Below, one piece after another: positions 158 through 30,891 of a stretch of 64,000 nt of DNA (position 1 is the stretch's first letter; the number at the start of each line of letters is the position of its first letter). Under the pieces are notes generated by a model that ran no database searches, had not been told where the DNA came from, and was given only the letters and a program-made list of their open reading frames with translations. The translations under genes and the position numbers were made by a program. Source of the stretch: Bispira polyomma (lineage: Eukaryota); contig OZ287751.1 in the NCBI GenBank assembly GCA_965649765.1, forward strand, positions 70,060,001 to 70,124,000. The letters are read 5' to 3'.

Positions 158-344
158 GCGGTATCCTGGTGACATTGGCGTCTGTAAACACCAGTAAGCC
201 TGCGTATGAAAACGTCTGGTTTGCGTCCACACCGTAGTTGGGAGCCGGGAAGTTGACGTAATGGTCCTCCTCTTCAGGAAGCTTCCATTTCCAACCAAAG
301 CTACTGTTCATATGTGTGTCATACGATCGCAGTTCTTCTATAAC
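158..344 (-). CDS. Mcr: Mcr exon 15 (VIEELRSYD...FPAPNYGVDANQTFSYAGLLVFTDANVTRIP)
   Basis: Acceptor tattag, donor gtgagt; AGLxVFTD motif preceding the bait/LDLa region. Confidence 0.92.
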
Positions 345-6300: not shown

Positions 6301-9300
6301 TTTTATTCACCACATAATGTACCCTCTATACAAGGTTAACCCTGTACTCACCACATAATGTACCCTCTATACAAGTTTAACCCCTAACTAACCACATAAT
6401 GTACCCTCTATACAAGTTTAACCCTCAACTCACCACATAATGTACCCTCTATACAAGTTTAACCCTTAACTCACCACATAATGTACCCTCTATACAAGGT
6501 TAACCTTTTACTCACCACACAATGTACCCTCTATACAAGTTTAACCCTTAACTCACCACATAATGTACCCTCTATACAAGGTTAACCCTTAACTCATCAC
6601 ATAATGTACCCTCTATACAAGTTTAACCCTTAACTCACCACATAATGTACCCTCTATACAAGTTTAACCCTTAACTCACCACATAATGTACCGTCTATAC
6701 AAGTTTAACCCTTAACTCACCACATAATGTACCCTCTATACAAGTTTAACCCTGAACTCACCACATAATGTACCCTCTCCACAAAGGTATTGGTGGCTAC
6801 AGTGAAGACCATGTACTGGTCCACCAGTGGGGAGGCTGTGGAGGAGGTGATGTACAGGTAACTTTCTGTAGGTGAGTAGTGTCTGGCAGCTGTCACCTCG
6901 ATCCTGTCCTCATTGAAGTTATCATAGTAAGCCTATAGAATGATACAAGAAATTATACAGACGGAAAATCCTCTATTATCTAAATACCCGGTACTCCAAT
7001 TTTATAAACTCATCCCATGGCCTAGTGGTTAAAAAGTTAAAGCTGATGATCATTAGGTGTCCGGTTTGAATTACAGTAATGCTGTAATGGTTACTTGGGG
7101 ATATCATCGTTACGCAATATATGGCATATGACCATGCTATTACACTACTGTTGACGACCAATGCTGTGTTGTAGGAATATCCCTTCTCAGAGAATGAATG
7201 ACTTACAGGATGACATATCAATAAATGTGCCATACAAATGCTTCAAAATAACCAAATAAATTTCTAATCTCCCAAATTTGTTTTTACCTACTACAGTTTA
7301 ACCCTTTTAAGTCGAACTTCAAAGGACCAGGTCAAATACCTCTACATATGCAGAATTTTACACATAACAGAGTAGATTTTGAAATGAGAAAGTTTCTGTT
7401 CGTCTATAAATTTTTTTTTTCACACAAAAAAAAAAAATTGACTTAACAAAGTTCTACTTAAAGGGGATTGATTGTATTTTATATATGTAATTGTGTGTTT
7501 GTAGTTTGATATCTCTCCAGCTGACATTGAACAATTGACACCCCAGCCTTCCATTTTTGTCAACCAATTGTTCAATGTCAGCTCCCCCAGGGAGCATACT
7601 AGCCATTGCTGCCACATACAGCACAGAGACAAGCACTCATTAGCGGCTAAATTGCTCTTTTTATACACCTTGGTAGAGAGGGAGAAATTTGTGTGAAGTG
7701 CCTTATCCAATGGTACAATCTGTTAAGTACCTTGCTCAAATTGTACAATCTGCAATAATTGATCCTGCAACTCTCCGACCCGAAGTCAAATGCTCTAACC
7801 ACTAAGCCACAGCAACCATCCTAACCTCTAATGAGGTATTTCAATGTTAATAATTATAAATAAGAACAGATTCGGAGAGTGAAAGATTTTATAAGTATAG
7901 GTTAGGATCCATGTTAGTGTTCTCTCTCTGGAAATAGAGACCAGGGGCCGGTTTCACCAAACATCCTTAGTCTTCTCCCTCCTTTAACTAAAGAAAGAAG
8001 CTCTTCCTTCCTTTGGTAAGGCCTCCCTTAAATCCGGTTTCACCAAGCCTCCTCTAAAACGATTCATGAATACTACACCAGCCATAACAAAAACTTAATT
8101 TTCACTGAATTACAGTTCATTTAAATAGTAACTTTCATTCCGTAAGGCCATTTCCTTGAATCAAAGGTAGCTCCTCAGTTTAAGGGAATACCCTTAAAAT
8201 CTAAGGAGCTCCTTTATTAAAGGAGGTTTGATGAAACTCATCTTTATTAAAGGAAGGGGAAAATCTTAGATTTAAGGAGCTCCTTTATTTGGGAAACTGG
8301 CCCCAGTTACTCATTCTTTTCGGGATCTTAATTACTGTTCTCTAATTTCAAAGAGAAAACACAAACAAAACCAAAAAGTCAGTTTATATGGACGGCTGTA
8401 GTAAGCCCCATCCAATAACTTACAGTGATAGTTATAAATGTGGCGTATTCGTGGGGTACAAATCTGTAGTGGGCGATACCGTCGTCTCCCACCAAGAACT
8501 TGTCCTGGAAGCTCCTGGTGCCTTGAGAACCTTCTTCTGAACGATCTACAGTGACTTGTCGTCTGTTGCGGAACAAAGGGGTCCCGTCTTTGTGGACTGC
8601 AGCGTACTGTAGGATGGATAGTGGTGACAAGAGTGTTGATAAGAGTTACATACACACAACACAGCTATCATAGTGTTACAATTGCAATAATATTTAAACT
8701 TAAGTCATAACATATCACTTTTTGTAGCACCATAATCACATTGAAATATTTCTAAAGCACTGTACAATTTGGTGATTCTAAATTCCTATTAGCTAAATAT
8801 CTGTTTTTAAAAATGAGTAAATTCACAATTAAAGCCTTGGAAATTGACGCAAATGCTGTCTGTTTCTAAAACATTTTCATGGGCACCAAGTGATATAAAA
8901 TATATTTATAAGATGGTCCATATACAATCATAGTGAAATAGGATATGTGGCATAGTGTGTAATAAAATAGCAAAATTACATGAGTGGTGTGTATGATTAA
9001 ATTATATAATAATAAAATGGGTTAATTAGTGCTTTTAATACCAGATAAAGGCAGAGCTATGTGCACTGAATATGAATTTGAATAGGACCAGTACATACAT
9101 ATACATCCATGGTCTGGTTGGGTTTGAACACTCTGGAGGTGTCTCCCAGTAACTGGAGTTTGACCAGGTTGTCATACACCACACAAATGGCTGAGCCTGT
9201 GGCTGACTGTATTAGGAACCAGTCATAGACTTCAGCTGTGACCTTCAATTCCTTGTCAGCTATAGATTCCCCAAAGGGCTCCAGGGCTTCACTGAGCTCC

Positions 9301-12300
9301 TTCATGGTAAACAAGAAGTCCTGTACACCTGGAAACTAGAACAAACAACAGATTGAAAAGATAAATACTTTGCAGTACATTGGCTTGGTGGAGCTCCTTC
9401 ATGGTAAAGAAGAAGTCCTGTACAACTGGGAACTGGAACAAACAACAGATTAAAAACATAACAACTTGGCAGTACATTGGCTTGGCGGAGCTCCTTCATG
9501 GTAAACAAGAAGTCCTGTATACCTGGGAACTAGAACAAACAACAGATTGAAAAGATAAATACTTGGTAGACTACACTTGAGTCTCCTTTTTATAGTAGTC
9601 CCCTGTGGCACAGTGGTTAGAAAGTTGGTCTAATGATTAAAAGGTTCTGGGTTCTACTCCCGGTACCAGTTGCTAGATTCACTGGTGAGATAACATCCTT
9701 GGGCAAAATGTGTACATGCGTTTGCCTAGTGGCTCGGATGACCACTTAAAATGGCAGTCCTCTGTCACTGGGTCCTATCCCTATTGGTAGGCTAAAGGTC
9801 CTTGGTGACGTTGATAAATTGTCATCCTCAAACCTCTCTCTTCAGCCTTTTAATATTTGATTTTAACAGAACCTTAAGAATTTTACTTTGGTACAAATAT
9901 TAAGTGCTATGGGTGCCACTACAACTTCTCATTTAAGTAGAGTTACTTTTGTGCTTCCAAACAAGGATCTTTTTATTGAACTTTACCCTTTGTAATCAAC
10001 AGCACTTTATTAGTCCACTGAAAGTTCAGTACGTTATGTATGAGCTAATAGGTCAAGGCCAAGATATAAATAGCAACTAAATGCTTAGACGTATTGATTT
10101 TTCTCACTGATCTTACAGCACACTTGCGGAGTATTTTCTTCACATCTAAAATGTACATATTTTCCATGAACAGTAAGCCAATTCAGCATTCCGAGTGCGC
10201 ATGTATAAATGGCGGTATGTGTGCTTCGGTTCGGGATAAAAAAAACACTAAAAGCTTACTAAAACAGATCACGTATTTACATTTTCTGAAATTAAATATT
10301 ATAATGCACAATTATTACAAAACTGAGCTTATAATCGAGAAGCTCTCATTAAAACCTTTTTTTAGATACCAACGTTGCCTATATTAAAAGTTTATATTAT
10401 TTTTTTTAATTATTTCTAAAATTTGAAGTGGAAAGAAATTGCCGGCATTTTGCGGGATTTCTAAATCCTCTATCATTATCGCTTACATATGCTTTTATTT
10501 ATCCCGACGTAGACATGCGCACTCGAAATGCTGAATAGGCTTATACCTTACTACAACTTTAACTCCTGTCAAAGTGCAGGGCCCGTATTCACTAACAAGT
10601 TAAATCCTATTCCTAACTTAGATTTCAGGTATTGTGGCTATATTTTACTAACTTAGATGCAAGTGGTATTCACGAAAGAAAATTTATTTACTTTGGAGAG
10701 AAAACTTACTTAGATTTCAAGTAAGCAGATGAGGTACCTTAGATTTCTTTCCTAACTTTGATTCTAAGTAAAACTTAAGTAAGTAGAGTTTTTTCACTTG
10801 TTGGTGAATACCACTTCTAAGGAAATCTTTGGAAAAATTTACTTACTTTGGAAAGTAAGTAAATTTTTTTTTTTACTTGTTCGTGAATACGGCCCCAGGT
10901 TATTTCTCCTTTGATCCCACAAGATATTTAATTGCACATGATTTAAGTGTGTGCTGTATTTATCTCCACCAAGGAAGTTATGTTTTCACCTGGGTCTGTT
11001 TGATAATTTGTAACCATGATTACATAAAACTACTGCACCAATTAACATGAAATGTAGTTATAGTGGAAGCATCGGCCACAAAGAAGGCATGAAATGTTAG
11101 AGTTAGATCCAGGTAGAATGGTGTATCCAGGAATTTTAAAACTTTTTGGCAATGTTACACCTTGGCTGGCAGATTTACTTAGTGCACTTCTAGTTACTTA
11201 CGTAGCTTTAGTGTCACAATGATTGCACAAATGATACTGAAATAATTTAGAAGTGATAGGTGCTGGAATAGGGCACAAGTTAAGGTAGAATTGATTAAAT
11301 TTTGTAGCAGAATTAAGCATTTATTTTGACACTGTGGCACTTTTGTGGAGATATGTGCTCTACTGAGTGCCATTCTTGTTGTATTTACTTCTACTTATAT
11401 ATCTCTCCTCATGTTTATTTCTTTGTTTGTCACCAGGATTATACAAAAACTACTGAACTAATTTACATGACATGTGAAGTATTGATGGGGCATTGACCAA
11501 GGTCAAATCAAATAAATTTGGAAGTGCATTCTTGATATAGAATGTTGAATTCTGGGGCCATATTAAAAAAAAGTTATAGTCTTCACTAAGTCTTAAGGCT
11601 TAAGATTATGGTCTTTGATTTGGGCAAAAAATGTTAAGATTTTAAGGTTAACTTTGCTTTTAACACTAAGACTTAACAGTATGTAGTCTTAAATATTATA
11701 TACATATACATTGTAGTATATGTTAAGCTTAAGACTAAGAGCTTTTGTTAATAGGGCCCCATGATTTTGTTCCCAGTTTTTGTCACTGTAGCTCCTTGAT
11801 GGTGGAGGGTATGCACTCATACTGAGAAGCCTATTAGTTCTATCTACTTGCACTTACGTATCTCTCCTCATGTTCCACAGTGGTGATAGGCCCCTCCCCT
11901 TCCTCCCTCTCCCCAGGGGGTCGCCATATGTCAACCTTCACCTTACTTCTACCCAAGACGGGCTGTCCCAAACTCAAGCTGTAAAACATTGAGTAATAGC
12001 GGCCATTGAACAACTCTTACTATGGTGAACAGGGCTTGTCTCTAGTAATAGTGGCCATCGAACAACTCTTACTATGGTGTACAGGGCTTGTATCTAGTAA
12101 TAGAGGCCATCGAACAACTCTTACTATGGTGTACAGGGCTTGTATCTAGTAATAGAGGCCATTGAACAACTCTTACTATGGTGAACACGGCTTGTATCTA
12201 GTAATAGGGGCCATTGAACAACTCTGACTATGATGAACAGGGTTGTATCTAGTAATAGGGGCCATTGAATAAGGACAAGAAATAATGTATGCTCTCAGCT

Positions 12301-15300
12301 TTTTCTGAATCTGTACAATCTGAAAGAGTTACATTGGAAGACTGTTTAATAAAAGCTTTAGAAAATTGTCACAGAAGCAAATATACAAACTAAAAGAATA
12401 GTTCTTGATTACATGTACTTCTTTCTGATATTCATCACAAAAATATAAACTGATGAAATACATAGCACTCATTGAATTTTAAAAAGAAAAACCATCGTCG
12501 GTAACTAAAGGAAATGATTTTGGGAATATAAGGTTCCAGATAGCTGGAGTCACGACAACACACATTGCAGAGTACTTCCATTATTTAATAACTGCCTATT
12601 TTTTAAACGCGGAGGTCTGCTGTACTGACAATTTCCAATTTGGGAGAAACTGAAAAAAAATCAAATCATATTTTTGGGGTTTTGACTGCTTCTCGATAGA
12701 CATAGGTTCTGTGGGTAAGAAATGGGGTTGAAAGGGTTAAATAATAACTCCCTCGTAACTTCCTGGTGTCATATTTACAATAAAGGTTCTAGTCTCTTTT
12801 TTTTGTCAACATTATAGATAATTTCAGAAAATACCATAATAAACAGTCTTTACAAATAGAAATAAAATCCTATAGCCTCTGATGATGGTGGTAGATATTT
12901 CCAGTCCACAATAAAATGTTTGTACTGGCATTTTTATGTGTAAACATCTTAACTGTAATGTTAAAAATGTTTAGACTGGAAATAGGACTTGACCAAATTT
13001 ATAAACATTGACAACACACCATAAGAAATTAGAGGACTTTTAGCTGGAATAATGGCGAGCACTGACAGATGCAATCCATTATTATACCAGAAAGTCCGTC
13101 ATTTAATTGTGTTTATGAAGTCTGCAACCTTGATGACTTTATTTGTACAAGAAAAAGTTAAAATCAATCCAGTAAGTACAATACTGAAAGAACGGACAGG
13201 GATAAAGTGTGTCTTATTAAGGAATTAAATAAGTATAAGTAAGTTTCTCCTGTAAACTTTGTTAATTTGAAGTTTAAGGAGCAGATGACAGTTTAAAATA
13301 ATGAAAGTGAAGGTGGAGAGAAATAGAATTATTATATGTGCTTAAGTAGCAGAGATAATGGTCATCATATTAAAAACATATTAATGTATTGATTTATACT
13401 TTGATAAAATTCTACCTACATTGTGATGCTCAGGTTTTGGTTTTACTCAATAAACTATAGTGATAATTATAGTCATATATGTATTATAGACAGCACAAAC
13501 CAAAAAAAAATATTACATGCAGTTAGAGAATAGTCAAGCCTAGTTAAGACAAAGAAAATATTAAAGTAAAAAAATACATGCAATTCAAAAGAAGATATTA
13601 AATGAAACAATAGAAACAATATACTGAAGTAAAATAAATCATGCCAAAAAAACCCAGTAGAGTGTAGTTTAGAAACAATAGATTGAAGTGAAATTATACA
13701 TGCGGTTAGATAGAAAATAAGTAAAGTTTAGCTTAGAAACAATAGCATGATGTAAAGTAAGACATATAGTTAGATAGAAAACAATTAAAGCCCAGTTAAG
13801 AGACAGTAGTATGAAGTAAAGTAAAACATGCAATTAGAAAAGAAATAAAGTCCAGTTTAGACACAACCGACAGATGCAGTCAGATAGAAGCGAAGTAAAG
13901 TCTATTTTAGACCAAATAGATTAAAGTATTATGCAGTTCGAAAAGAAGTAAGGCCCAGTTGAGACACGATAGTATGATGTAAAACAATACATGCACTTGG
14001 ATACAAAAAGAAGTAAAACCTATTTTAGACCAAATAGGTTAAAGTAAAATAGCACATGCAGTTAGAAAAGCAGTAAAGCATATAGTTTAGATGCAACAGA
14101 ATGAAATTAAATAATAGATGCAGTTAGACAGAAAAGAAAGAATTAATACCCAGTTTAGATTCAAAAGATTGAAGTAAAATAATAATACATGCAGTTAGAC
14201 AGAGGAAAAGCCTATAGGTCAAATACAAAAGAATGAAACAAGGTATTACATGCAGTCAGACAGAAAAGAAAGAAATAATGCCCAGTTTCGAAAAAAACTA
14301 GATTGAAGTAAAATCAGACATGTAATTGTACAGAAGAAAAGTAAAGCCTATTTTCAAAAATAAAATATTAAAGTAAGGACAATAGTGGAGTCTACTTTAG
14401 AGACAATAGATTGAAAGTAAAATAATACAACGTGCAGTTAGACAGAAGTTTAGACATAATAGACTGAAGTAAAATATAATACATGCAGTTAGATAGAAAA
14501 AAGGAAAGCCTAATATAGTCAGAATAGACTGAAACAAAATGATACATGCAGTTAGAAGTGAAGTAAAATCTATTTTGGACAACATAGACTTAAGTAAAAT
14601 AATACACGCAGTTAGATAGAAAAGAAGAACAACCCAGTTTAAATACAACAGATAAAGTCTTAATGGCAGAAAGTGACTCACAGATCAAAGTGAGGAGCAG
14701 AAAGTGAAAGTATGCAGAAGAATAGAGAAATAATTTCAAATTGAGTGTGAGGCTTTCCACTTTAGCATATTATGTTTTGATGGGCAGTTTTGTAAGTGGA
14801 GGAAAGTAGAGCAACGTAGTCGGTCCAGATTTCTGAACTGCAAACCACTGGTCTTCATCGCATCTGCTGCCAACTTTCCCACATACATATATTAGAGGCA
14901 AAGATTCACACCAAGGACTGCAGAAGTGTTGTATGGATACTTTTTTTATTGAACAGAGTACCCTGCATTGTGAGACTTAAAGTATTAGTTTTCCTTTGCT
15001 TGACTGCACAATTACAGACAACCAGCACCAGTATTGCATTTTATATTTTTAACTTGCTTTATTGATGTGAGGCATCTTCTAAAGTGAAGCATCTGAATCA
15101 ATCAACCAATCACCTGTCCTACAACATAGCCTGGGTTGTCCTCAGTAGGCAATGGTTCACATCTTGCCCAAGGATGTCATTCCACCAGTGAACCTAGCAG
15201 TCTTAGCAGGAGTCCAATCAGAGACCTTCTGATCACCAAACCAACTCCCCTGACCATGAGTCGAACCGAGAATGTTCTGATCACCAGACCAACTCCATAA

Positions 15301-18300
15301 CCACAAGACCACAGGAGACTGTCATTTATCTGACCAAATACAGAGGTTTCTGGATGACACCATTTATCAATGTCCCGAAGGTTCTTTGGCCTGCCTCTGT
15401 GGAAAAGATCCAATGGCAGGAGGACTGCCATTTCATTTGAAGCTACCATAATCTACCTGTACATGGGAGTCCTAGGCTGAGGTTGAACTGTTTCACCTCA
15501 CTTTCAACAACTGGAAGAAACAGACTTTCTTTTTCTCCGTAAAACCCCACCAAGAGGGCTGGATTTAGAGCTTTCTCTATTGCTGTCCCTATGTTATGTC
15601 AATAGTTGGTAAATGTTATTAGCAGTAAAAACTACTAGCCTTCAGCAAGTCTACTACCAGTTGTTATTTCCCACATACACATATATGCCAGTGTGGACTG
15701 TAGAGGTGGGAGGAGCAAGTATGTTAGTTAAAGTAATAGTATTTAGTCCAGATTAATTTAGATGTTTAAAGTACATGTATTTAAACATCACTTCAGTTGC
15801 TGAAACCTTTATTATAACAGAAAGCATGAATTAAAGTACATGTATGTGTATTTAAACTTCTTTCAGCTAAAAGTTGCTGAACGCATTTAACATAAGAGAA
15901 AGCATGCATGCAGAGTTAAGTTACAAAGAGAAACTCGATCTCAGTGACAACAGAAAAGAAGTGTAGAAATACTCTGAAGAATAAAGAAAAAGTAAAAACG
16001 AAGACAAGAGGAATAGAAAAGGAGACAAATAGACCATGAGAACTATAAAGACACAACACTGAACCTATCAGTTTACCCTTTTGCTGTTCCACCATGTGTG
16101 ACACTTAAATAGAAATGACAGTTGATATCATATGATAAAGTTCATTATTTACATCTAAATACAAGCTACTAAATACATATATACACATATAGATACTGTA
16201 AAATATATATGTATATATAAATATATATAAGGTGAATACTCAACCGTGCTAACACAACGATCACCATACTTTTGTAGCTACTAATATATATTATTAACTT
16301 TCAGCTTCAGCCAGAAAATATGGCTATTGTAGGAAAATATACAATGAAAACACTCCTTTTTAAAAAAAATTTAATTCAACATTAAATATTTATTAAATCT
16401 ATGTTTTTTTGTATAAAATGCATAATGTTCTTGAACTACAAGGTTAACTAACAATGTAAATACATTACAAAAATTATATAAATACATGTACACAGGCATT
16501 CAAGTTTTTAAGAGGGAAACATGAAAAGTATTATCACAAACAGAGACAAGTTTAAGAATATGAGTTAAGTTTCCTTTAATTTTACAAAAATTTGTATTTA
16601 AAAAAAAAAATACTCATGGAATGGTCTAATGACCTGACAGGTGTTATGAATGCCTGGGTTTTGTTGTTATCAATAAGTAAAGAGCCTGAGGGTGCCTTTC
16701 CCAATGTTAACAAGAGAAAGTGACCTTGCGGTCACAAATCTCAGAGACATGTATCTATTTTTCAAGCTGTCTATCTAAAAGTAAACCAATATTGAATTGA
16801 ATATATTATACACTGTATTATTATGCCATGTTGGTTCTATGTACATGTAGTAACAAATCTCACACTCGCTAGGTGGCACTTGCGATTTGCTAGAAATAAG
16901 CTAGCCGCTGATTGGTTGTCACCGGACAACTCCTCGATTTTGAACCAATGAAAATGTAGAAGACAAACTGTGACTGTAGTTTAATATTTTAGAAGCTGCG
17001 CACAGTATAATATTTGGATGTTTTGTTTACATATCAGCGGTGACCGTATATAAATAAAAACTACATATTGGCAAACGCCATAACGGACCGAATCGTCTGG
17101 CTACCAAAGGTACAGTGTCTAGTATCTTCTATTTTCGCTCACGCTCACAGACCGATCAAACAAACCACTTACCAAATAGTCAAAGCTATATTCCGCCATT
17201 GATGCTACACAAATAAAAAGCCATAATATCCTTTTATAAACCATGTCAAAGCACTGTTAGGGGATTATGTAATCCGCCATTGTCACTGAAGTAAAACAAC
17301 TGAAAGGCTGTCATATCCCAACTTCCCTTACAAAACCTGATCAGCCGCCATAAAGGTGTGGTTATTGCTTGGAAATCCCCATGCTTTTAGAGATGGTCCT
17401 AATTTTCAACCAATCCCGTCTCGCCTAGGGTAAATTATGTGTACCGACCTCTGGCGGAGCGAACCGAAATTATTCTAATTAAAATCAATATAAGAAAAAA
17501 ATGGTGTACAACGAGACGGGGTTACTTAGTTAATTATGTTAAAAAATAAATTGTTATAAAACGAGTAATATATATTCTTTCATATATCTATATACTTTGC
17601 ATATACCTTCAAATCTGTTCATATGTTTGCTTTCATATAATTTTATATTCACTATGTTTCTTCCTTGTATATATTCTAGCATATCACCATTAAAGTAGAC
17701 AGATAAATGTACACAGATAAACATGTGTTGATGAATCTTGTAATATACTCGGCATCGCTTTGAAGTAAAAATAAGGTCTCAGATGGGGTGAGTTCCTGAT
17801 TGGCGAAATAAAAAACGATTAATATTGTCTCACATTTGACCTTAACGCGCATGCACATGGGAAACCGGCTATATGTTTACATATTATTTGATACTACAAA
17901 TATGGTGGTTTCAAAAGCTACAGAAGTCTCGCAAACTAAACAAATTTGAATAGATTAAAGCCACTATATGAGCAGATAAGGTGATATTTTGTCAAACTGT
18001 CATATAATAATAATGTTTTTATTGAATTAAGGCAATTTCTTGGCTTTTCGCCATTTCTCGCCCATCTTTTTGAAAAATAGAATTCATCTTCTGTTTAAGG
18101 TCTTCCTTGTACACAGTGTGGCGCCATCTAGCGGTCGAGACTAAAGTTAGAAGGCGTGCGTTCACGCAAGTTAGAAGAAAAATTAGAAGAAATGAATTTT
18201 TCCGTCAGTATGGGTGTATATATATTGTATATATATCCCCAACCCTAGTTTTTGTCACATATATATATACCTATTGAAACCTACGAATCTGACTGGCCCC

Positions 18301-21300
18301 ACGAAAAATGGACATAACAAAATATGCGATAATTGCGAGGTCAAAAGTTAAATTTTATTTTACAAACAAAATAAAAAAATAAATAGATATATTAATGCTT
18401 CTGACTCGTCCTTAGTACCAACCACATGTAACTGCCAAAAATTAACTTAAAATAATGAACGGAACTGGTAGATGGTGCTGTCTACAGACAAAAAACATCT
18501 TCCTATTACATGATCTCGGCGGGCTTCCGCGCTCCGAGATAACAATACATGGCACACGTTTTAAAAGTTTCTTTAAAAATTACAATGCAAAGAGAAAATA
18601 TTTTATATATCAGTAATATTTGCTAGAACAGGTTTGTATTTTGTAAAATACATAAAGTGAAGCACTTCACACACAAACAAGTTTTGAGGGCACAACATCT
18701 CGAAGGTTTTCTGCACAAGGAACCACTGGGAGCTGTGTGTTAAAGGATTAATGGGAAAAGTGTAAATTTTTAGTAGTGTGCATAGTAGTGTTGACTTACT
18801 TGGCACTCATGACCCCGCCCAGTCCATATTCATCCTCCATCATGTAGATAGGTATACTCACATTCACATCTATAGCCGTAATAACTGGTAAGTAAAAATA
18901 CAGAAAAAGAAATTACTAAAACAGACTACAAAATAGGACTGAAAGACTCTTCTAAGTAGCGTAGATTCCTCTTTAATGCTTAGATCAATTACTGGCAAGC
19001 TTTGGAGTCACATTGTGTAAAATGTGACCACAAAATTGGTATTATATGGTCAAATTTAGTCTCAGAATTGAGGTCATGGACCTATATTTTTCCAAGGAAA
19101 AAACTTTTTCTAAATTTGTCTTAAGACTTTAAACTGAAGTCAAGGAAGCCCTTATTTAAATGGATATAATCTCTCAGTTAATATGGTTTTCAATACTACA
19201 TTCAAATATTTTCCTCAATTTTATCCTTGGCAGAAACACAGGGACCTAGCCTGTTACTTGAGAAAAATAAACAAACCTGGGCCACTAATCTATAAACAAA
19301 GCAAACTTAGGACATACACAATTTTCAAAACTCAATATGCTGTCAAACTCTATCCAGATCCCAAAGATCACTAATTGCTCAACTTAGGAGTGGGACTCTC
19401 CCTCTTAAAATAGAAGGCATGAGATTTGGAAAAATGTATAAGGTCAAAGAGAAACTATGTAAATTTTGTGATGAAATTGAGGACGAAAGACATTTTGTTT
19501 TTGAATGTAAACCCTTTTATGATGGTAGAGTAGACTTTATCAATAGTATGAACATTAATTTGATTAATTTTAATGAGTTAAGTATTTGTGAGAAATGGAA
19601 AATGGTTATGTGTAAAACAAACATTTATAAACTAAGTAATATATGTACAAACCATATTTGTAAGTGAGACAAAATATGTTGCACTCAGCTTAAGTTAATG
19701 TTTGGTTAATAAAGTATAGGTTCAGTTTTATTAAAAACTATTTTTATAGTCAATGGTATGTTATATTATATTACCTGAAACGTTTCCTTATTATTCTGTA
19801 ACTTGATTGTAAAGTAAAATATCCTTTACCTTTCATATAGTAATAATATACTAGAAACGTCTTCTCGGCTCTGATAGCCCGCGGAAAGGCCTATCGGGTT
19901 AAGGACGCCGGGAGGTCGGATCTAGTATATTGTAATTTTTTTATATGATATTCTACATTTTATGTTTCATTATGATACCAAAAACCTTTCCTTTCCAATA
20001 TATAAATCAAGTGCTAAGTCAAATTTCCTAACTTTTATATAATAATAGTATGCTAGAAATGTCTTCTTGGCTCTGATAGCCTGCGGCAAAGGCATCAACA
20101 AGTTAAAGATGCTCGGAAGTCGGATCTGGCATACTGTTATTTTATATGTCTGATATTATACATTGTATGCTAATATCATATTAATGCTGTATTTGTACAT
20201 TTAACCTATTTTAACAGGTAAACTCTCTCATAAGCCACAAGTGGCTGGCTGGGTCTAACATTTTGTAAATTGTATTATGTGTTTATATTTACCAGTTGAG
20301 AGTATAATAAAAATCTATCTATCTATCTATCTTCAGGCCCTGGTGCTTACTTGAGCTGGAGTGTGAGTTAAGAATTTGCCAAAGTTTTTGTATATTATGA
20401 AAATGCATCAGAATCCTCCACCATTATAGGAAATTCTAATCCAGACAACATGAATGAAAATATCCGACATAGGCCCCTCATGGTCTAGTCATTAGGGAGT
20501 TGGTCTGATGATCAGAAGGTCCTGGGTTCAATTCCCAGTACTGGCCACTAGTTTCATGGGTGGAATAACATCCTTGGGCAAGATCTGTACACACGTTTGG
20601 CTAGTGGCTCGGATGACCACTTAAAATGGCTGTCCACTGCTGATAGGACCCAGTGACAGGCTAAAGATCCTTGGGGACATTGATAAATGGTCATGCTAAA
20701 GCCTCTCTCTTCAGTCAGGGGAATGACAGTAACTGAGGCAGTTGACTGTTGCAGTCAAGAAAGGGTTATTAAGCATAATAAATACCAGATGAAAGTAGAT
20801 ATAAGTGCTGAGTATAAATCTGATTACAATTCAATTACAATTTACATTTTTAAGACAAGTAAAACTTGAAAAGAAAACTTACAGAATTCATCCACTCTGA
20901 AAGGCTCCTCATATGTGTAACCCTAAAATAGATAAACCATCAATAATAAGAATAGTGGTACTTTAAAACTTACAATGTCTATAGTTTATAAGTATGTATT
21001 TTCTTAATGTACATATTCAAAAAAATTTTCTTACCTTTTATGTAAATTACCGTAAAACTAAAAAATTCAGCTAGACAGAAAATTTACTAATTTATCATTT
21101 TTGTAAAGATATTTACCTCAATTAATTTTCAAAAGATTAAGACAAAGTTAAATTTCTAATTGGAATACATTTTTACTATCTAAACTTACGAGCTAAATTA
21201 GCTAAAAAAATAGTTCATAGTAAAAATTGTCACTACTGTAGTATAATTTTTAACACATTCATATAAAATCTATTTAAACTGACAAAAGATGACATGATAT

Positions 21301-24300
21301 AATTGATTTTTAATGCGTCTAATTGATGCCAGGCATCTTCTAAAGCGCGACATCCTTGACACAATTGTTAAAATCGTAGTCCGTTTCCAATGCAAATTCG
21401 TGATCGGGTGGAGATGTGGAGGAGAATGAAATCCATGGAGAGTAAGCGAGGGTGAACAGATGGGTCTTAAGGATACATCTAATACCAGAGATAGTTTTTC
21501 TGGGATCTTATATTGGGCAGTAAATTATTCCATGGAGTAAACGGCTGAAAAGAGAAGACAGAGGACCCAATTATTTACTAGTTCTAGTATCAGAGATTTA
21601 ACTTCTGTTTTCCCTGCTAAGCCTGCTAAAATACAACAATAAGGCAAGATATGGAGGCTGACAAAAGTTTACAGCTTTGTATGTACGTAGTAACATTGGT
21701 GTTGATACTGATGCGGTACTGAAGATTTGTAATTTACACATATTGATCTATTCAATTCCTCTAGATAATTTGAGTTTCTCACTATGTGTATAATCTGTAC
21801 ATGTGTACAATAAAGTACAATGTATATAAGTATAATAGAGTTTCACTTACAAAGGCCTGCACTTGTATTTTCCACATTCCATAGTGAGGCTGTTCAGATA
21901 ATGGAAACTCCATATTCAACACACCTAGAATGAAAGACTAGATAATGTCATAAACATGCAATATTAATAAACCATATTTGAATTTCTTTAGTTTTAGTTT
22001 ATTGAAAATAGAGTCAACTCAACACCTTTTTGTTTTATAACAAATAATCATCATTTATTGTAAAGCACATTTGGAAAGAATGAAAGAAAGCAATGTAAAC
22101 CACCAGACTTAAGCAAGTCAACTGCCAACTGTCACAGATGCATATATAGGGCCAAGGAGATTTGGACCTATGACTGCAAAGGGTGGGAGACATGAGTGTT
22201 ACCAAGACACCTAAACTAGGTTACACTTATATATACAGTACCATCTTCTATTATCCAAATATTTGAATTTATAAACTCATTTCCACTCTCCCAACCCAAT
22301 GCATTGCTATTGTTTTTCTACAGAAAGGCCTCTTTCTATTTTATGAACCTTCTATTATCCAAACAAAATCAATTTCTCCCAAACTGTTTGGATAATAGAC
22401 GTTTTACTGTCTATACTTAATTCAGATTAAAACATGTACCTCCAGCATTGGTTTGCATAGACAGCCAGCGTCTTACAATTGTATTGGTTGAGTCCTAGGA
22501 AATACATAGAAAATCATGTAATATAGAAATCTGACTCTGATATTTACCAACACTTGAAAATTTGTTTTAAGTAGAATCAGACACAATATTCACTTAGTTT
22601 TATATTACCAGGCAAGGACGGCTGATATTTTAAATAACTCTACTCAAGTACTGCAGCAAGTCATGGTTTTTATTTCAGTAACAACTCCTTACATAAATAG
22701 GAAAATAAGAAAGATTTCATGTATTTATTTTGGAAAACTGAGATGGACGGACTGGCTTCGATGTCTGAAGAAAGAGAATTCCACAAAGCTAGTGCAGTGT
22801 GAATCAAGGTTTTAGAAAAATATTTCCGACTTCTATATCCCCTTTTCTGTGCTTGGAAACTTTGAAATTTGTGGTTTCGGTTGCTCTACAGAATTAAAAC
22901 GTTTCACCCATTATTGATTGTAAAATTCCTAGGTCAATGTACACAGGTACTGTTGGGTTTGAGCGAGGAACCCTCTCTATAATTTTCCTTAACTTCATCT
23001 TCCTTCCTGAACCATCTACAGTGGGCTGTGTGAGGGGTATGTATTAAGCATGGTCACCTCAGCATGGCCCAGAAAACTTTTCACCCATTTCTAAGTATTT
23101 CCGTGTCACCACTCTAAGTCTTCTGTCACAGTAATCATGTGTTTACACCTGTTTCCGACTATTTCCGAGTATTTCGGTATCACTACTGTAAAATTTGCCA
23201 TACCAGTTATTGTCTGTATCCATATGTAAAACTTATCTGGACAAATTGTTTACTTCATATGAAGGGGGTATATTTTTTCCCTAAATGGAACAGCCGGTAT
23301 GACAGGCCGAAAGACAAGTTACAATACCTTATGGTACCGCCTACCATACCGCCAATGTGCGAACGGGACATAAGAACCATTTAGTGGGATGGCAAGTGAC
23401 AAATGTATACAAACAGTAACTGCACAGAATGACCCTTACCACAATGTACACATCCATGGATCCACTGCGAGACATGAGATTCTTTTCAATTGGCATTATT
23501 CTAAATAAAACTGAAACAATAGCCACAAAAAAACAACATTAAAAAGAAACCTTGGAATCAATTCAATCAAGGACTTTGCTCCACAATCATTTCCAATAGT
23601 GCTTTAATAGACAATTTTATACACTGGAGTTTTTTTACAATGCAAATAGCCACTTATTTCCTAATTTATATTTTCTATGAAGGTTGCAGGAACCTTGTAA
23701 TGATTAACTCTACATCTATTACCAGTATAACATCACAGTTTAGAGGAGAGTCAGTGGTAAATAAATGACTTCTGTATATAAACAACACACAATGTGGTGG
23801 TACTGTACCAGTTACCAGGACCAAGTTACGCCCACCCAGATTGAAAGAGTCAATATTTATTTGTAGGTTTATTAATTTTCAACACTAATGCTAGCATTTT
23901 ATACATGACAATATAGTAGTGGTTTCTCACAGAAACAGTGTGTGCTTGCGTCATTTGTAAACTAACATTTTTTACAATCATTTTACAAAGTGAGCGTAAA
24001 CTGGACTCGGGCGTGAACTGCTATAGTACCACTACATGTATATGCAGATTTATATTCTTGCTTGCTCAGAGAGAAGCCAACATATTCAATTCATTAATGT
24101 TTTTATCAACTTAATCTAAAACTGTACTTGTTATTATGTAAGGCTTTATAAACATTATAAGCTGTGAAATTGGAGGACAATAAAATAACCAAAAAAAAAA
24201 AAAACAACACACAACTGTTTGGGCATTTATTTTGTCCAGAAAACAATGTAAGAATTCAAATTTCTATCATGATTGGCATAGTGATTGAAAGACCCTATAA

Positions 24301-27300
24301 AATTACTCCAATTAAAGAAATGAAATTGAACATTTAACCAGGCCACTTACAGGCAGATATATATTAAGTATGACATTCACAAGATAAAAGCAGTGGCAAA
24401 ACATTAGAAAATAGTCCTACATATGAAAGAAAATTTTACTATCTAAACAAAACATTCACTCCATATAGCGCTACAATCGATGACCAGGCATCCTCTGTGG
24501 CACATATCCCAATCAGCATGCAAAAGGATAGTCCGATAGAAGAAAAGGTACATGATCAGAGTTCAGGAAACAAATGTTAAACTGGAAAAGAAAGTTGATA
24601 CAGATGCGTTTTGAGCTTTTTTCTGAAGCTTGTAATTCTCTGAAGCTTGTAATTCTTTTCTCAGTGTGAAGACTATTAGAAAGACTAGTCCTCTCAACAC
24701 TTGAGTATAATTATACAATTCACAGCACAGTTTTGTTAACAACACTTTTGTTATTGGTCCAGACAGTCAATGTACTATAGATAATAAGACGTTGTACTGT
24801 ATATGATTACTGTATTGGGTACAGTTACACAATTTACAGGTACTGTACTGAGTATGATAACACACTTAAGATATTTGCAAACTAGCACAAGGTGAGAATA
24901 GATGAGGAGATTTAAGGCGAGACTATATCAATTACATATTTTCACTAAAGTTTTGTTACTTTCTTTAACAGAATGGTCCATGAAGAATGAGTAAAATATT
25001 TTTTTAAAAACCCCATTTTATTTAAAGACACACTTGCTTCATGATGTTCATGCTCGCAACCCGTGATAATGACAAATTAAAGAAAATGTAAGAAATTTGA
25101 TTTGTCTTGCAGTAGTTGGTAAAGGCCACTAAAGGTTACCTTTCTGTCCCTGCCTGAAGAATGGCTTGTTGACCTGTATAAAGAGAGAGCACTGCTTTGC
25201 TGAGAAGAGGAGTTCCGTCTCATTCTCAAAGATATAGCCTCCCAGTCCGTCACTCGTGGTCCCTTCTATACGCAACGTGTAGTTACCACCGTCAGCATTT
25301 TCTGGTATCTGAAGGTTAGAAATACGGTAAATAAAACCTCCAAACAGTGGCGAACACTCACTAGATCCAGCACCAAACTGTTCATGTTCACCATACATAG
25401 AGTGTGGTACTGTATACTGATTAAAATATGGGACCGGGGGAAAGTGTTCATTATATAGAGATTTTACTGTAGATCAAGTACTTTTATAGCATCTTCAAAC
25501 TTTTTAGCATTTATTTTAATTTATATTAGATGAAAACTCTAAAGTGCTAGATTAAAAGATAATCAGACATCTAAACCATAATAGTTTCAACATCAAAAAC
25601 AAATTTGTAAACTATCTTACAGATTAGATGTAAATAGATTAACTGTAGTCATTGGAATGTTTCTTATATTAGCTTTAGTATGTTAGTATTCAGGAGTAGT
25701 TAGTAATTACCAAGGATTATCAGGGATAGTATTGCGTGACGCGTGTGTAGTGTGCATACATAGATGGATACAAGTTTAGGCATACATGCATATTCACAAT
25801 TATTAGGTTTAATTGAAATTGACCTAAGTTTATGTTAGAAACTGGTGATACCAAAGAAGTATTGAAAACATGTGTGAGCTTTTGTTACATACAAATAAAA
25901 TGAGAGCTACTTTTTGATTTTTTTGGCGACAATTGACCTAAAATGTTTATTGTACAAAACGGTCTCCATCGGCATGAGTTGTATCTTTGTAAAGAGTCTG
26001 ATAGGTCTGTACTATAGTTAATATAAAACCTACCTCCATATGCATGAGTTGTATCTTTGTATAAAGTCTAATAGGTCTGTACTATAGTAAATATAAAACC
26101 TACCTCCATATGCATGAGTTGTATTCCTGTGTAAAGTCTGATAGGTCTGTGCTATAGTTAATATAAAACCTACCTCCATCTGCATGAGTTGTGTCCTTGT
26201 ATAAAGTCAGAAATGTCTGTGCTATAGTTAATATAAAACCTACCTCCATCTGCATGAGTTGTTTCCTTGTATAAAGTCTGATAGGTCTGTGCTATAGTTA
26301 ATATAAAACCTACCTCCATATGCATGAGTTGTATCCTTGTATAAAGTCTGATAGGTCTGTGCTATAGTTAATATAAAACCTACCTCCATCGGCATCAGTT
26401 ATATCCTTGTATAAAGTCTGATAGGTCTGTACTATAGTTAATATAAAACCTACCTCCATCGGCATCAGTTGTATCCTTGTATAAAGTCTGATAGGTCTGC
26501 ACTAAAGTTAATATAAAACCTACCTCCATCTGCATGAGTTGTATTCTTGTATAAAGTCTGATAGGTCTGTACTATAGTTAATATAAAACCTACCTCCATC
26601 GGCATGAGTTGTATTCTTGTATAAGGTTTGATAGGTCTGTACTATAGTAAATATAAAACCTACCTCCATCTGCATGAGTTGTGTCCTTGTATAAAGTCTG
26701 ATAGGTCTGTGCTATAGTTAATATAAAACCTACCTCCATCTGCATGAGTTGTTTCCTTGTATAAAGTCTGACAGGTCTGTGCTATAGTTAATATAAAACC
26801 TACCTCCATCTGCATGAGTTATGTCTTTGTATAAAGTCTGATAGGTCTATGCTATAGTTAATATAAAACCTACCTCCATCTGCATGAGTTGTGTCCTTGT
26901 ATAAAGTCTGATAGGCCTGTGCTATAGTTAATATAAAACCTACCTCCATCTGCATGAGTTGTGTCCTTGTATAAAGTCTGACAGGTCTGTACTATAGTTA
27001 ATATAAAACCTACCTCCATCTGCATGAGTTGTGTCCTTGTATAAAGTCTGACAGGTCTGTGCTATAGTTAATATAAAACCTACCTCCATCTGCATCAGTT
27101 GTATCTTTGTATAAAGTCTTGTACTATAGTTAAAACCTACCTCCATCTGCATGAGTTGTGTCCCTGTGGTGTAGAAGGTCTGATAAGCCTGAGCTATCTC
27201 TTCACTCCACCTCCTGATAGAAGCCCGTACGTTAATGTTCTCATAGTACATGGCCATAATGTTCACAGACAGCTGGACCACCTGGTTCGGGTGGATCTGT

Positions 27301-28982
27301 CTGGGGGCGACAATCATGTAGGATCTGTGGGATGAAACACATTTATAAACATTTAAAACAGAAGGGTTAATCCTTCGGAAGCCAAGAGAAAACTATTGCC
27401 GGGAACTGAAGGACATTTTTCAGTAATAAGTTAGCTGGAGCCACTAAAACACACATCACAGAGTATGGCCTCATGTAAAAAAAATTAGTGGGGCAGTCTT
27501 GTAAACATTGCCGTTTTTTTGTAATAACTCAAAAATTACTGAAGGTATAAATTTCCTGAAAATATCGTGAGGAAGCTTATTTTATCGGGTATATTGTGCT
27601 TTTTGTTGCATCAAAATCGGTATAGAAATATTCAGATATTCAGGTTTAAATACAGGTATCTATTTTTCTCAAATAATTGTATAGAAACTAAAATTGAAAA
27701 TTGCCTGTTAAACATCGGCTGGTCGCCTCAGAAAGTTGCCTGCATGGAAGCGCTCACTTAGTGTATATGTATATCAGTTCTTAGTGCATCTACAAAGTCC
27801 TTTCATAGTTCGGAATAAAATCTGTTTTATTCAAAAGGTTTATTGATGTGCTTTTTCTCTTACTTTCATCAAGATCCTGAATGACACAGCAGTGTATGCC
27901 AGTAACTGATTTGTTAATCCTTTGTACTAAACAATGAGACTTCAACTTATTTTTACAAAAAAAACACAAAAAAAACGTTGTACTCTATATTTACTAAACA
28001 TATAAATGAGACCTAGCACACGTCACCTCATTTCCCATGTACACTTTAGGGCTTAAATGCAATTGGCCGGTACCAACATGATATCACTAACTTCACTTTA
28101 AAATTTTAAGGGGGGATTTGTCGCCATGTTTTTGCTAAATTACAATAAATTATTTATTTCTATTATTAGCACATTGATTCAAATAAAACAGTACTATTTC
28201 ACCACGATTACAACTTTCAGCAGATCAACTACCATACATACATGGTACATTACTAGTATAGCATAATGACTCAATGTATTATTGTAAATGCCTAATTTTA
28301 GCACATTTCAAGTATATATTATTTCAAACAGATGCTCTTTCCTACATTTCCATACTTTTTTCCATCAAAAAAGAGTTGCCAGAGTTTGATTTGAGTTATA
28401 TCGTTACAGTGAATTTGTGTAACGAATCAAAAGAGCCGATACATTGTTATAAACATGACACAGTGCATATGTGCAGGTGAGTACGAAATGAGTCTTGTAA
28501 ATATTATGCTGTAAAACGTTTCCTTGTTTATACTTATTTGTTTGAAATATGAGGTTTGAATAAAGAACAAATAAATTATATTGTGTTAGCTAAGGTTATT
28601 TTCTTTGCATTATACTTCACTTAGTATATTTTATATTATATTTGGGGATTTTATGAAATCCCTGGCTTAAATTTCAGTGATTTAACGAATTCCTTGTCAA
28701 TCTTAGGCATTTGGTGAAATCACTGACTAAAAATCAGGGATTTCATGCAATCCCTGAGAAATACAGGAATTTGGCGAAACCCTGATTTACACAAATTCAC
28801 TGTGACATATATATTGCACACATGTCCACCACACAGGTAAACTGTTATTACCAATCTCTCCACACTTACGCATCCCTGTTCAGCCTATATCCATCTGGCT
28901 GATCCTGACATCCCACATTGCCTGTCAAACACACAATTATAACCAGCACCACTGTTAATAAACACAATCCTACTTTGATCAT
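158..28982 (-). CDS. Mcr: Macroglobulin complement-related (Mcr/TEP6-like, alpha-2-macroglobulin/CD109 family) gene; 15 coding exons in the window, 3' part beyond the left edge
   Basis: Hand-spliced exons: 28870-28982, 27141-27324, 25140-25308, 23440-23510, 22440-22494, 21851-21924, 20883-20922, 18800-18884, 11858-11978, 9099-9335, 8424-8606, 6762-6932, 4390-4575, 2785-2934, 158-344. All introns are GT-AG with compatible phases and no stops over 675 codons. It encodes a signal peptide then MG domains. Segments IPENADGGNYTLRIEG..GGYIFENETELLFS..SLFIQVNKP, RRWLSMQTNAG and FPAPNYGVDANQTFSYAGLLVFTD resemble Drosophila Mcr as recalled from memory; no alignment was run. Confidence 0.9.
2143..2800. 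repeat. Old duplication starting at the exon-14 donor; one copy is interrupted by a SINE-like fragment (~2530-2690)
   Basis: taatggtcccgat..agctgctttgt..taaaaagcc.ggc..actagcaag and acctgct.gat.ttaga..atacaatgtact each occur twice; decoy CATG|GTATGT at 2334. Confidence 0.75.
2785..2934 (-). CDS. Mcr: Mcr exon 14 (LEARFSRGKDFTGDTVEV...GTFITESM)
   Basis: Acceptor ttccccag, donor ATG|gtgagt. Confidence 0.9.
3485..3837. mobile_element. MITE
   Basis: TIRs agtagacgtatttcacagac / gtctgtgaaatacacctact. Confidence 0.75.
4390..4575 (-). CDS. Mcr: Mcr exon 13 (VTCGGNIITGG...GEVIADSFNFFVNGTRINN)
   Basis: Acceptor attacag, donor gtaagc; GEVIADS A2M motif. Confidence 0.93.
4510..4838. repeat. Diverged ~110-120-bp triplication spanning the exon-13 acceptor
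   Basis: atctctaac..acc..tgatgtt..gttacctRtaat..tgataaaa(a)ca..gggaNgtgtgagag occurs three times. Confidence 0.88.
4955..6785. repeat. 41-bp minisatellite (about 38 units) made of the 3' end of exon 12 plus its donor, with two longer decayed exon-12 fragments
   Basis: Unit actcaccacataatgtaccctctatacaaggttaaccctta; longer exon-like pieces at about 4962-5056 and 5244-5340. Confidence 0.95.
6762..6932 (-). CDS. Mcr: Mcr exon 12 (AYYDNFNEDR...HYSPTESYLYITSST...VERVHYV)
   Basis: Acceptor ctatag, donor GTG|gtgagt; YSPxxxYL motif. Confidence 0.9.
7490..7815 (-). mobile_element. SINE family B
   Basis: aaccaattgttca, catactagcca.tgctgccacat, tttatacacc, ctaaccactaagccac. Confidence 0.78.
7945..8303. 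mobile_element. PIF/Harbinger-type MITE
   Basis: TIRs gggccggtttcaccaaa / tttgggaaactggccc, CAG flanks, internal ttaaagga repeats. Confidence 0.78.
8424..8606 (-). CDS. Mcr: Mcr exon 11 (YAAVHKDGTPL...ATFITIT)
   Basis: Acceptor cctacag, donor gtaagt; DGxP motif. Confidence 0.9.
9099..9335 (-). CDS. Mcr: Mcr exon 10 (FPGVQDFLFTMKEL...VFKPNQTMDVY)
   Basis: Acceptor gttctag, donor gtatgt; open frame containing the FKP motif. Confidence 0.88.
9294..9567. repeat. 97-bp tandem triplication spanning the exon-10 acceptor
   Basis: gagctccttcatggtaaa..gaagtcctgta..ctggRaactRgaacaaacaacagatt occurs three times; exon starts at 9335 (real), 9432 and 9529. Confidence 0.93.
9598..9845 (+). mobile_element. 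tRNA-derived SINE, family A
   Basis: A-box tggcacagtggt, B-box-like ggttctactccc, ccttgggcaa core; other copies at 20471-20745 (+), 36595-36745 (-) and 15140-15440 (-). Confidence 0.85.
10174..10543. mobile_element. MITE, copy 1 (TIR taagccaattcagcattccgagtgcgcatgt)
   Basis: About 30-bp TIRs; near-identical copy at 42257-42604. Confidence 0.88.
10580..10895. mobile_element. PIF/Harbinger-type MITE
   Basis: TIRs ggcccgtattcac / gtgaatacggccc, CAG direct repeats on the flanks. Confidence 0.8.
10957..11840 (+). mobile_element. Three decayed tandem Helentron/HINE-like non-autonomous units
   Basis: 5' ctccaccaagga.gttatgttttcacc and 3' cttgg..ggag.tatg.Rctctactgagtgcc.ttctagtt hairpin ends; a further copy lies at about 59555-59735. 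Confidence 0.6.
11553..11760. mobile_element. Harbinger-type MITE with ttaagact/agtcttaa repeats, nested in a HINE-like unit
   Basis: ggggccatattaaaaaaa / ttttgttaatagggcccc. Confidence 0.65.
11858..11978 (-). CDS. Mcr: Mcr exon 9 (LSLGQPVLGRSKVKVDIW...EHEERY)
   Basis: Acceptor tttacag, donor gtaagt; GxPVxG motif. Confidence 0.88.
11993..12268. repeat. 52-bp tandem repeat (about 5 units) abutting the exon-9 acceptor
   Basis: Unit gtaatagaggccatcgaacaactcttactatggtgtacagggcttgtatcta; starts about 12 nt from the AG. Confidence 0.93.
13480..14660. repeat. Highly degenerate ~60-bp A-rich tandem repeat in intron 8
   Basis: Recurring aatacatgcagttagaYagaaaa..gtaaagcc.agtttaga.acaatagattgaagtaaa. 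Confidence 0.85.
15140..15440 (-). mobile_element. Rearranged SINE family A fragments with a duplicated head
   Basis: ttgcccaaggatg, two copies of ttctgatcacca.accaactcc, and catttatcaatgtccc. Confidence 0.65.
18235..18545 (+). mobile_element. Helentron/HINE-like element 3' portion
   Basis: Terminal hairpin atctcggcgggcttccgcgctccgagat followed by aacaa. Confidence 0.45.
18800..18884 (-). CDS. Mcr: Mcr exon 8 (FITAIDVNVSIPIYMMEDEYGLGGVMSAN)
   Basis: Acceptor ttaccag, donor gtaagt; FEVNVTMP-like motif. Confidence 0.88.
19250..20330 (+). mobile_element. 5'-truncated LINE (RTE-X/L2-like C-terminus plus 3' UTR ending in (atct)n)
   Basis: Frameshifted KLRTYTIFK..SLIAQLRSGTLPLKIE..LCKFCDEIEDERHFVFEC; tail aataaaaatctatctatctatc. 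The same tail occurs inverted at about 60150-60245. Confidence 0.75.
19843..20141 (+). ncRNA. Two tandem copies of a candidate structured RNA motif (19843-19933 and 20041-20141)
   Basis: Closing stems with two compensatory A-U to G-C changes between copies; internal helices retained through G-U pairs. Confidence 0.5.
20471..20745 (+). mobile_element. tRNA-derived SINE, family A
   Basis: gggttcaattccc B-box; shares ctagtggctcggatgaccacttaaaatggc with the 9598 copy. Confidence 0.85.
20883..20922 (-). CDS. Mcr: Mcr exon 7 (GYTYEEPFRVDEF)
   Basis: 40-nt exon, acceptor ttttag, donor gtaagt; FxVEEY-like motif. Confidence 0.88.
21851..21924 (-). CDS. Mcr: Mcr exon 6 (GVLNMEFPLSEQPHYGMWKIQVQAF)
   Basis: Acceptor ttctag, donor gtaagt; FPLSxxPxxGxWxI A2M motif. 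Confidence 0.93.
22236..22410. mobile_element. Tc1/mariner (Tigger-like) MITE
   Basis: tacagtaccatcttctattatccaaa / tttggataatagacgttttactgt; related piece near 6957. Confidence 0.6.
22440..22494 (-). CDS. Mcr: Mcr exon 5 (DSTNTIVRRWLSMQTNAG)
   Basis: Acceptor ttcctag, donor gtacat; phases fit. Confidence 0.9.
23440..23510 (-). CDS. Mcr: Mcr exon 4 (VLFRIMPIEKNLMSRSGSMDVYIV)
   Basis: Acceptor tttcag, donor gtaagg; VxFR motif of MG2. Confidence 0.9.
25140..25308 (-). CDS. Mcr: Mcr exon 3 (IPENADGGNYTLRIEG...IQVNKPFFRQGQK)
   Basis: Acceptor ccttcag, donor gtaacc; contains the IQTDKP-like motif. Confidence 0.93.
25964..27195. repeat. 70-bp minisatellite (about 17 units) made of the 3' end of exon 2 plus its splice donor
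   Basis: Unit atataaaacctacctccatctgcatgagttgtgtccttgtataaagtctgataggtctgtgctatagtta; donor copies at 27084, then every 70 bp down to 26034. Confidence 0.95.
27141..27324 (-). CDS. Mcr: Mcr exon 2 (SYMIVAPRQIHPNQVVQLSV...TGTQLMQME)
   Basis: Acceptor cccacag, donor GAG|gtaggt; YxIVAP start typical of the TEP/A2M MG1 domain. Confidence 0.92.
28402..28806. mobile_element. TIR element with TGT..ACA-like termini in intron 1
   Basis: cgttacagtgaatttgtgtaa / ttacacaaattcactgtgaca, tatat on both flanks, internal aaatccctg/cagggattt repeats. Confidence 0.6.
28870..28982 (-). CDS. Mcr: Mcr coding exon 1, signal peptide (MIKVGLCLLTVVLVIIVCLTGNVGCQDQPDGYRLNRDA)
   Basis: ATG in accATG context, hydrophobic core, donor GC|gtaagt, phase 2 fits exon 2. 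A possible upstream acceptor (tattacag) at 29018-29019 suggests an earlier non-coding exon. Confidence 0.85.
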
Positions 28983-30772: not shown

Positions 30773-30891
30773 GGCTTTTAACAAAAGTCAATTTCAACAA
30801 AATTGGTCAGTATTTGTCATTTTATTTACTAATTACAATTTTAGGTGACCAAGAAGTTAGGGCCACTTTAACATAATTAAGTTAACCCTGA

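Follow-up and report, generated by a model that had tools for sequence, protein, structure and literature searches.

Behind its authentic 5' splice site, intron 2 of the gene described here carries sixteen further perfect copies of the same donor motif, the nearest of which would extend the protein in frame. The question raised by this locus is whether these decoys serve an alternative isoform, are held in a harmless configuration by selection, or are neutral. The window, that is the whole stretch of DNA that was analysed, is 64,000 nucleotides long, and the gene and the array lie on its minus strand, their coordinates below being window positions unless a contig is named. The array is a 'mirage', or donor-spanning minisatellite, of an ordinary kind and is probably neutral, with the ancestral first donor likely to perform most of the splicing. 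Such arrays are common both in this gene and in this genome and display no preference for frame; the in-frame insertion offered by the first copy is likely to be a matter of chance.

Host gene and anatomy of the array

Judged by homology, the host is a macroglobulin-complement-related (MCR/Mcr-like) gene. Its model, for which 200 kb of neighbouring sequence was used and splice sites were placed on genomic DNA by homology and by eye, comprises 33 exons with a 1566-aa open frame running through the donor at 27141. The best named match is P0044, 'macroglobulin-complement related protein-like 1 [Arenicola marina]', at 61% identity over 1532 aligned positions. Exons 1–15 are placed in the window by the homology model (158..28982), and the gene extends about 21 kb below the window start. 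The coding part of exon 1 (28870..28982) starts with ATG, is signal-peptide-like and has a GT donor and a frame that in the model stays open into exon 2. Exon 2 (27141..27324; 184 nt), delimited by homologs and alignment, would encode the first part of the first macroglobulin domain, and the exonic part of the repeat derives from its final ~57 nt. Exon 3 (25140..25308; 169 nt) has its modelled acceptor at 25308. The last intron of the model, intron 32 (C4:~70040300), starts with GC and not GT.

MCR proteins, which include Drosophila Mcr, Biomphalaria BgMCR1/2 and Arenicola MCR-like 1, are defined (PMC7016707) by an LDLa module, a mutated thioester site, a cysteine stretch and a hydrophobic C-terminal tail. 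The present protein resembles them in the first two respects: exon 16 matches the LDLa family PF00057 (E 9e-05, 23.1 bits, just below the cut-off of 24.1), and the thioester site reads GSAEQ in place of the canonical CGEQ (GGAEQ in P0044). The C-terminus, read by eye, has four Cys followed by a hydrophobic run up to the stop, which may correspond to the cysteine stretch and a transmembrane helix. The difference concerns the exon 2–3 junction, where the 19-aa insert discussed below occurs in no sampled homolog; the repeat belongs to the intron of this genome and not to the MCR family. Pfam recognised no family for exon 2 or exon 3 searched alone and a word-based protein search with exon 2 gave no match, whereas an exhaustive search returned 35 homologs. 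The earlier placement of the array in the N-terminal macroglobulin-domain region of its host is correct. Two distant exon-2 paralogs, L030 (C4:86.26 Mb) and L031 (C8:12.88 Mb), share 29–32% identity and, from their sequence, are likely to be other genes of the thioester-protein family.

Three of these 35 homologs are spliced sequences, and the other 32 read through from genomic DNA. In the read-throughs the residue right after the position of 27141 is Val (GTN codon) in 31/32 and Ala in 1/32, which fits a GT or GC intron start, so that on comparative grounds 27141 is the ancestral donor. This authentic site (GAG/GTAGGT, with the slash at the exon–intron boundary; 27135..27143, intron from 27140) is backed by the 32 unspliced fragments and by the spliced homologs. 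None of seven spliced homologs has an insert at the exon 2–3 junction, and the model aligns with 7/7 of them without one; three of the seven form a single Paragonimus cluster and all are distant (33–61% identity where measured).

A motif search finds 17 GAG/GTAGGT sites in the window, every one inside the exon-2/intron-2 stretch, with last exonic bases at 27141, at 27084 and then in 70-nt steps down to 26034. The motif is complete in all 16 decoys that follow 27141. The longer string ATGGAG/GTAGGTTTT, which is the reverse complement of a 15-mer given in the preliminary description, is likewise invariant in 16/16, whereas 23 of the 70 unit columns vary among 16 full units, the mean difference between units being 5.3/70 nt (7.5%). 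By TRF and unit alignment, sixteen 70-nt units occupy 25964..27083 and contain the 15 other intact decoys (27014 to 26034); TRF itself reports 16.5 copies of a 70-nt period at 25964-27119. Each unit combines ~52 nt of exon-end sequence with ~18 nt of initial intron sequence, close to the ~51 and ~19 nt proposed previously, and its exon-derived portion differs from exon 2 by 7 substitutions and a 5-nt gap. The edge unit (27084..27140), which ends in decoy donor 27084, measures 57 nt and aligns as a 70-nt unit minus a 5-nt gap and an 8-nt gap. At the far end, a 17th exon-like copy ends at 25964 with no GT after it. The array stops here (25940-25964, minus strand) precisely at the exon-end position of that copy and gives way to unrelated sequence, a deletion breakpoint or origin junction coinciding with the splice position.

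Use of donor 27084, which has the same 9-mer as 27141 and an equal score, would add VGFNYSTRLYTKIQLMQME, 19 residues without a stop and with one N-Y-S sequon. The donors at +127 and +197 shift the frame. That at +267 is in frame but lies beyond the first TAG met in translation when exon 2 is read into the array (26940..26942), and all farther donors lie downstream of stops; the donors from +267 onward are unusable in frame because of the TAG at 26942-26940. The preliminary description had already listed the decoy series, its invariant core, the short first unit, the open 19-residue addition with its sequon and the failure of the farther donors, and the present motif search, alignment and translation agree with it on these points.

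A genome search with the array returned 8 matches, all (8/8) inside the array itself; as far as this search goes, which yields lower bounds, the repeat has a single genomic place and no dispersed copies, and a dispersed element is thereby excluded.

Arrays at other splice sites of the gene and genome

Boundary copies elsewhere in the MCR-like gene were sought with a 25-nt probe laid across each exon–intron boundary and searched in the boundary's own intron at a threshold of at least 19/25 matches. Such own-intron copies occur at 5/32 donors and 4/32 acceptors, as against 3/1984 foreign-intron pairs. The donor cases consist of four arrays, in introns 2, 12, 20 and 29, and one single match without GT. 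Their nearest GT decoys lie at +57, +41, +149 and +41, respectively, and are in frame in intron 2 only. The sister array in intron 12 (4961..6778; TRF and boundary probe) has a 41-nt unit and 39 probe copies, with a nearest decoy that frameshifts; it also includes a larger duplicated block near 5000-5380 with ~70 nt of extra degenerate exon-12 sequence. Below the window start are the arrays of intron 20 (C4:70053900-70054200), with 3–4 copies of a 76-nt unit, and of intron 29 (C4:70043300-70044200), with 17 probe copies of a 40-nt unit. By the same probe, acceptor copies are found in intron 9 (9294..9566; 97-nt unit), at -97 and -194 and both frameshifting, and in intron 12 (4576..4700), at -108 and in frame with a stop; introns 15 and 22 have acceptor copies too. 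A 52-nt × 5.4 array at 11992-12269 (minus strand) ends 14 nt before the exon-9 acceptor and has no clear boundary copy.

The frequency of such arrays was estimated from exon-level matches to two families, myosin head (73) and chaperonin (58), obtained from family searches. Of the 131 matches 120 were used first, after 11 paralog copies or weak matches had been left out; 3 near-identical paralogs and 4 long intron-less matches were then removed to leave 113, which provide 94 donors and 89 acceptors with scores of at least 5 on matrices built from the MCR-like gene. Copies are present at 22/94 donors (15 with at least three copies) and 10/89 acceptors (3 with at least three), compared with 26/8742 in a foreign-flank control. 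For arrays of at least three copies the excess of donors over acceptors, 15/94 versus 3/89, has P 0.005. Donors also fall within the first unit of such an array more often (13/94) than random positions of a 464-kb region (9/3000) or positions 20–60 nt into the same introns (12/376, P 0.0002). These rates describe two gene families with several exons per gene, predicted boundaries and one background region without G+C matching.

On balance, these figures lean towards a preferential seeding or retention of minisatellites at 5' splice sites, the exon-2 array being one of what are likely many thousands. The donor bias, if true, could stem from mutation linked to the ends of exons or from a strong filter that tolerates donor copies differently from acceptor copies. 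G+C-rich exon ends that seed repeats, combined with selection that removes acceptor copies, could also produce it without any splicing-linked mutation. No genome-wide count or controlled rate of such arrays was found in the literature searched, which covered few subscription papers; the rate with its controls is the new part, the layout itself being already known. If ~15% of donors do carry arrays, mirages would be a major class of intronic DNA in this genome, would put the accuracy of gene prediction and read mapping at risk, and would offer raw material for intron gain as well as a large sample in which to study how 5' splice sites are chosen.

Three near-identical myosin copies, L057, L056 and L058 (on C8, C11 and C13), share a 53-nt donor array of 24, 12 and 16.8 units by TRF, respectively, which indicates that copy number has changed since the gene duplicated. 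Some 60 kb below the window, a 55-nt satellite whose unit includes a donor-like motif fills ~6.5 kb at C4:~69995900-70002500; no exon was found upstream and it was left uncounted as a donor array.

Frame, donor conservation and rival readings

For frame and conservation, the myosin and chaperonin donor arrays and the four MCR arrays were combined into 26 sites, of which 25 include a GT copy. Among these 25 arrays, 7 have an in-frame nearest GT decoy, where 8.3 are expected, and 18 a frameshifting one; in 2/25 it is both in frame and open. Selection for frame is rejected on the in-frame count. The earlier suggestion that selection had made the nearest decoy frame-preserving fails on it too, and the other three arrays of the same gene frameshift. 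Nor is a deviant edge unit peculiar to exon 2, as first-unit length differs from modal length in 4/19 arrays with at least three copies (3/18 besides the exon-2 array). Simulated pairs of random short deletions leave an in-frame, open unit in 24% of cases. A myosin exon in L063 (~1650-1850 of the oriented locus) likewise has its nearest decoy donor, at +75, in frame and stop-free, which makes it another test site of the 27084 type.

It is unlikely that donor 27084 is a regulated or selected alternative that yields an isoform whose first macroglobulin domain carries an extra loop of 19 aa, possibly glycosylated. The product of 27084 would be in frame and open, the donor's 9-mer is that of 27141, and the nearest pseudo-donors are used in human IFI6 and CBS, according to PMC1557585. 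Homolog P0009, whose AlphaFold model (mean pLDDT 68.7) serves here only to place the junction and does not represent the host protein, has the junction where a confidently modelled beta-strand (92-99) gives way to a loop; the insert, which ends in a copy of this strand, would likely be tolerated as a longer loop. Against a selected isoform stand its absence from all seven spliced homologs, the lack of enrichment among nearest decoys, for which a 1-in-4 chance is enough, and the 18 N-X-S/T sequons already present in the protein, two of them <30 residues downstream of the junction. The +19-aa product is a possible one and may be regarded, from the reading frame, as a candidate isoform. Since IFI6 and CBS use their two nearest pseudo-sites, low-level use of 27084 is quite possible, and a tentative case can be made that some of it would be detectable; a low level of the +19-aa product would be compatible with a neutral mirage.

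A lower probability attaches to a general safeguard, in which selection keeps the decoy donors intact and trims the nearest competitor into frame. The preliminary description had made it a test whether the donor positions are more conserved than the rest of the unit, and for the exon-2 array this holds nominally: none of the 9 columns of the donor 9-mer varies versus 23/61 elsewhere (P 0.021-0.042, the upper value on 15 units). This P is, however, the lowest of 12 arrays with at least five modal-length units, and one P of 0.042 or below among 12 has a 40% chance. Over the pooled arrays it does not hold. The donor 9-mers of the 12 arrays hold 31 derived alleles versus 33.9 expected (P 0.35; Fisher-combined P 0.71), variation is flat from -20 to +20, and the invariance is not repeated in the 11 other arrays, those of introns 12 and 29 giving P 0.44-0.60 and P 0.83-0.97, respectively. 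General donor conservation is rejected on these pooled variants. Pooled GT dinucleotides show a deficit of variants (3 versus 7.5 expected, P 0.058, a figure subject to some ascertainment bias) that would favour such a safeguard; the frameshift of the nearest decoy in most arrays speaks against it.

The exon-2 array has, in addition, a 20-nt invariant run over the donor with P 0.002-0.004 by column shuffling, or ~0.04 after 12 tests, compared with P 0.41-0.84 in the other 11 arrays. Its first 22 intron-side columns include 2/22 variable ones versus 21/48 in the remainder (P 0.005), a split that was chosen post hoc. Exon 2 departs from the unit consensus in 7 columns, each of which is also variable between units, and 4 of these include a variant identical to the exon base. 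Differences may thus have built up in the exon-derived part through older variation or through conversion from the exon, so that the junction only looks conserved; at a marginal level, the 20-nt run is not fully explained in this way.

Less probable again is a reading in which every 70-nt unit comprises an in-frame cassette exon of 48 nt (TATAG/...GAG/GT) preceded by a 22-nt spacer too short to splice, the array forming a young cluster of mutually exclusive micro-exons. An AG does lie 48 nt before each donor, with an acceptor score of 5.5 that falls in the lower quartile of real sites, 12/15 cassettes are stop-free and the conserved part is the 22-nt spacer. This AG is, however, simply derived from exon 2, and an acceptor-like AG (score at least 5) occurs in 4/11 other arrays, in phase in one. 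The 48/22 split was, moreover, picked after inspection of the data. Cassette variants comprise 7 synonymous, 14 non-synonymous and 2 stop-forming changes, with no clear coding constraint; on these classes and the stops in 3/15 cassettes, a coding-constrained 48-nt cassette array was dismissed. Recursive splicing at GAG/GT was also dismissed, GAG being a poor splice acceptor.

The least probable reading makes the array, or its first unit of 57 nt, an artefact of assembly: no DNA contig shows a splice joint or covers exon 2 or the 57-nt unit whole (the records are filtered, so this is no proof), and the latter is known from the assembly alone, but units differ by 7.5% and exact matches to unit-specific pieces, up to 85 nt in length and without any other letters, come from 3/3 short-read runs, which represent at most 2 samples of one study and are possibly the assembly's own source. 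For the comparison of copy number, the array is spanned by none of these short contigs (at most 2 samples, one study).

Known donor-spanning repeats and a proposed origin

The exon-2 array consists of head-to-tail repeats, its first unit lies over the authentic boundary, and the splice signal is reiterated in the intron, as in the mirages of amphioxus. These are reported from Adh3, the globins BflGb6/BflGb9, troponin C and PGBD5; they leave splicing undisturbed and their edge units escape homogenisation (PMC3087553, PMC3902484). The likeness extends to tandem copies of both donors and acceptors with intact splice signals, a unit inside the reported 10–160 nt, atypical edge units and several arrays per locus. 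In contrast, the present host is a non-chordate, with its closest named protein match from a polychaete, and a rate has been measured here (15/94 donors with at least three copies). In amphioxus, splicing was shown to be normal and array length to be polymorphic, whereas the present array is known from genomic DNA.

Human donor-spanning VNTRs form a second group, which in PMC1557585 includes F7 intron 7 (37 bp), IFI6/6-16, CBS intron 13, LMNB2 and PDGF intron 4. Here too the first unit spans the donor and is followed by 4–25 identical pseudo-donors, and the PDGF repeat, with 16–18 units of 81 bp, has nearly the same layout as the exon-2 array. In F7, LMNB2 and PDGF the first donor alone is used, and in F7 the identical downstream donors are functional yet unused; in IFI6 (6-16) and CBS the two nearest pseudo-sites are used besides the first donor (PMC1557585). 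The human examples are a few isolated loci for which transcripts were examined, and the exon-2 array differs in that its unit is largely exonic (52/70 nt) and its nearest decoy is in frame and open. Human duplicated genes are also reported to contain 27 intron modifications by internal repeats (PMC2812944).

The neutral mirage could have arisen by a local duplication across the donor, taking in the last ~57 nt of the exon with 18 nt of intron, followed by growth of the array through slippage or unequal exchange. The edge unit would have evaded homogenisation and been shortened by two deletions totalling 13 nt, coming into frame by a chance of about 1 in 4. As mammalian and amphioxus data suggest, the most upstream of the identical donors would win and the mRNA would be unchanged, and products of the farther donors, with their frameshifts or stops, would likely be removed by nonsense-mediated decay.

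Because its layout is known from amphioxus and humans, the exon-2 locus carries little weight alone, and chance alone yields an in-frame first decoy roughly once in every three to four cases. Since transcripts spliced at 27084 would not be subject to nonsense-mediated decay, junction reads there would gauge the true use of a second, identical donor in an invertebrate. The first-donor rule has so far been inferred in invertebrates, and the exon-2 array offers a clean test site for it. Should the donor bias be true, this genome would amount to a natural experiment on spliceosomal choice between identical donors, in which in-frame examples such as 27084 would provide a decay-proof read-out.

The sequence around the first exons holds other repeats. 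At 27380-27780, in intron 1, there is a very high-copy dispersed repeat, likely to be a short mobile element, whose contig depth exceeds that of single-copy sequence by a factor of thousands. Upstream of exon 1, a 43/119-nt satellite at 29809-30774 is flanked by inverted copies (29554-29717 and 32211-32346) of a palindromic 61–71-nt repeat, and the region 29554-32346 that contains it is possibly a foldback-type element.
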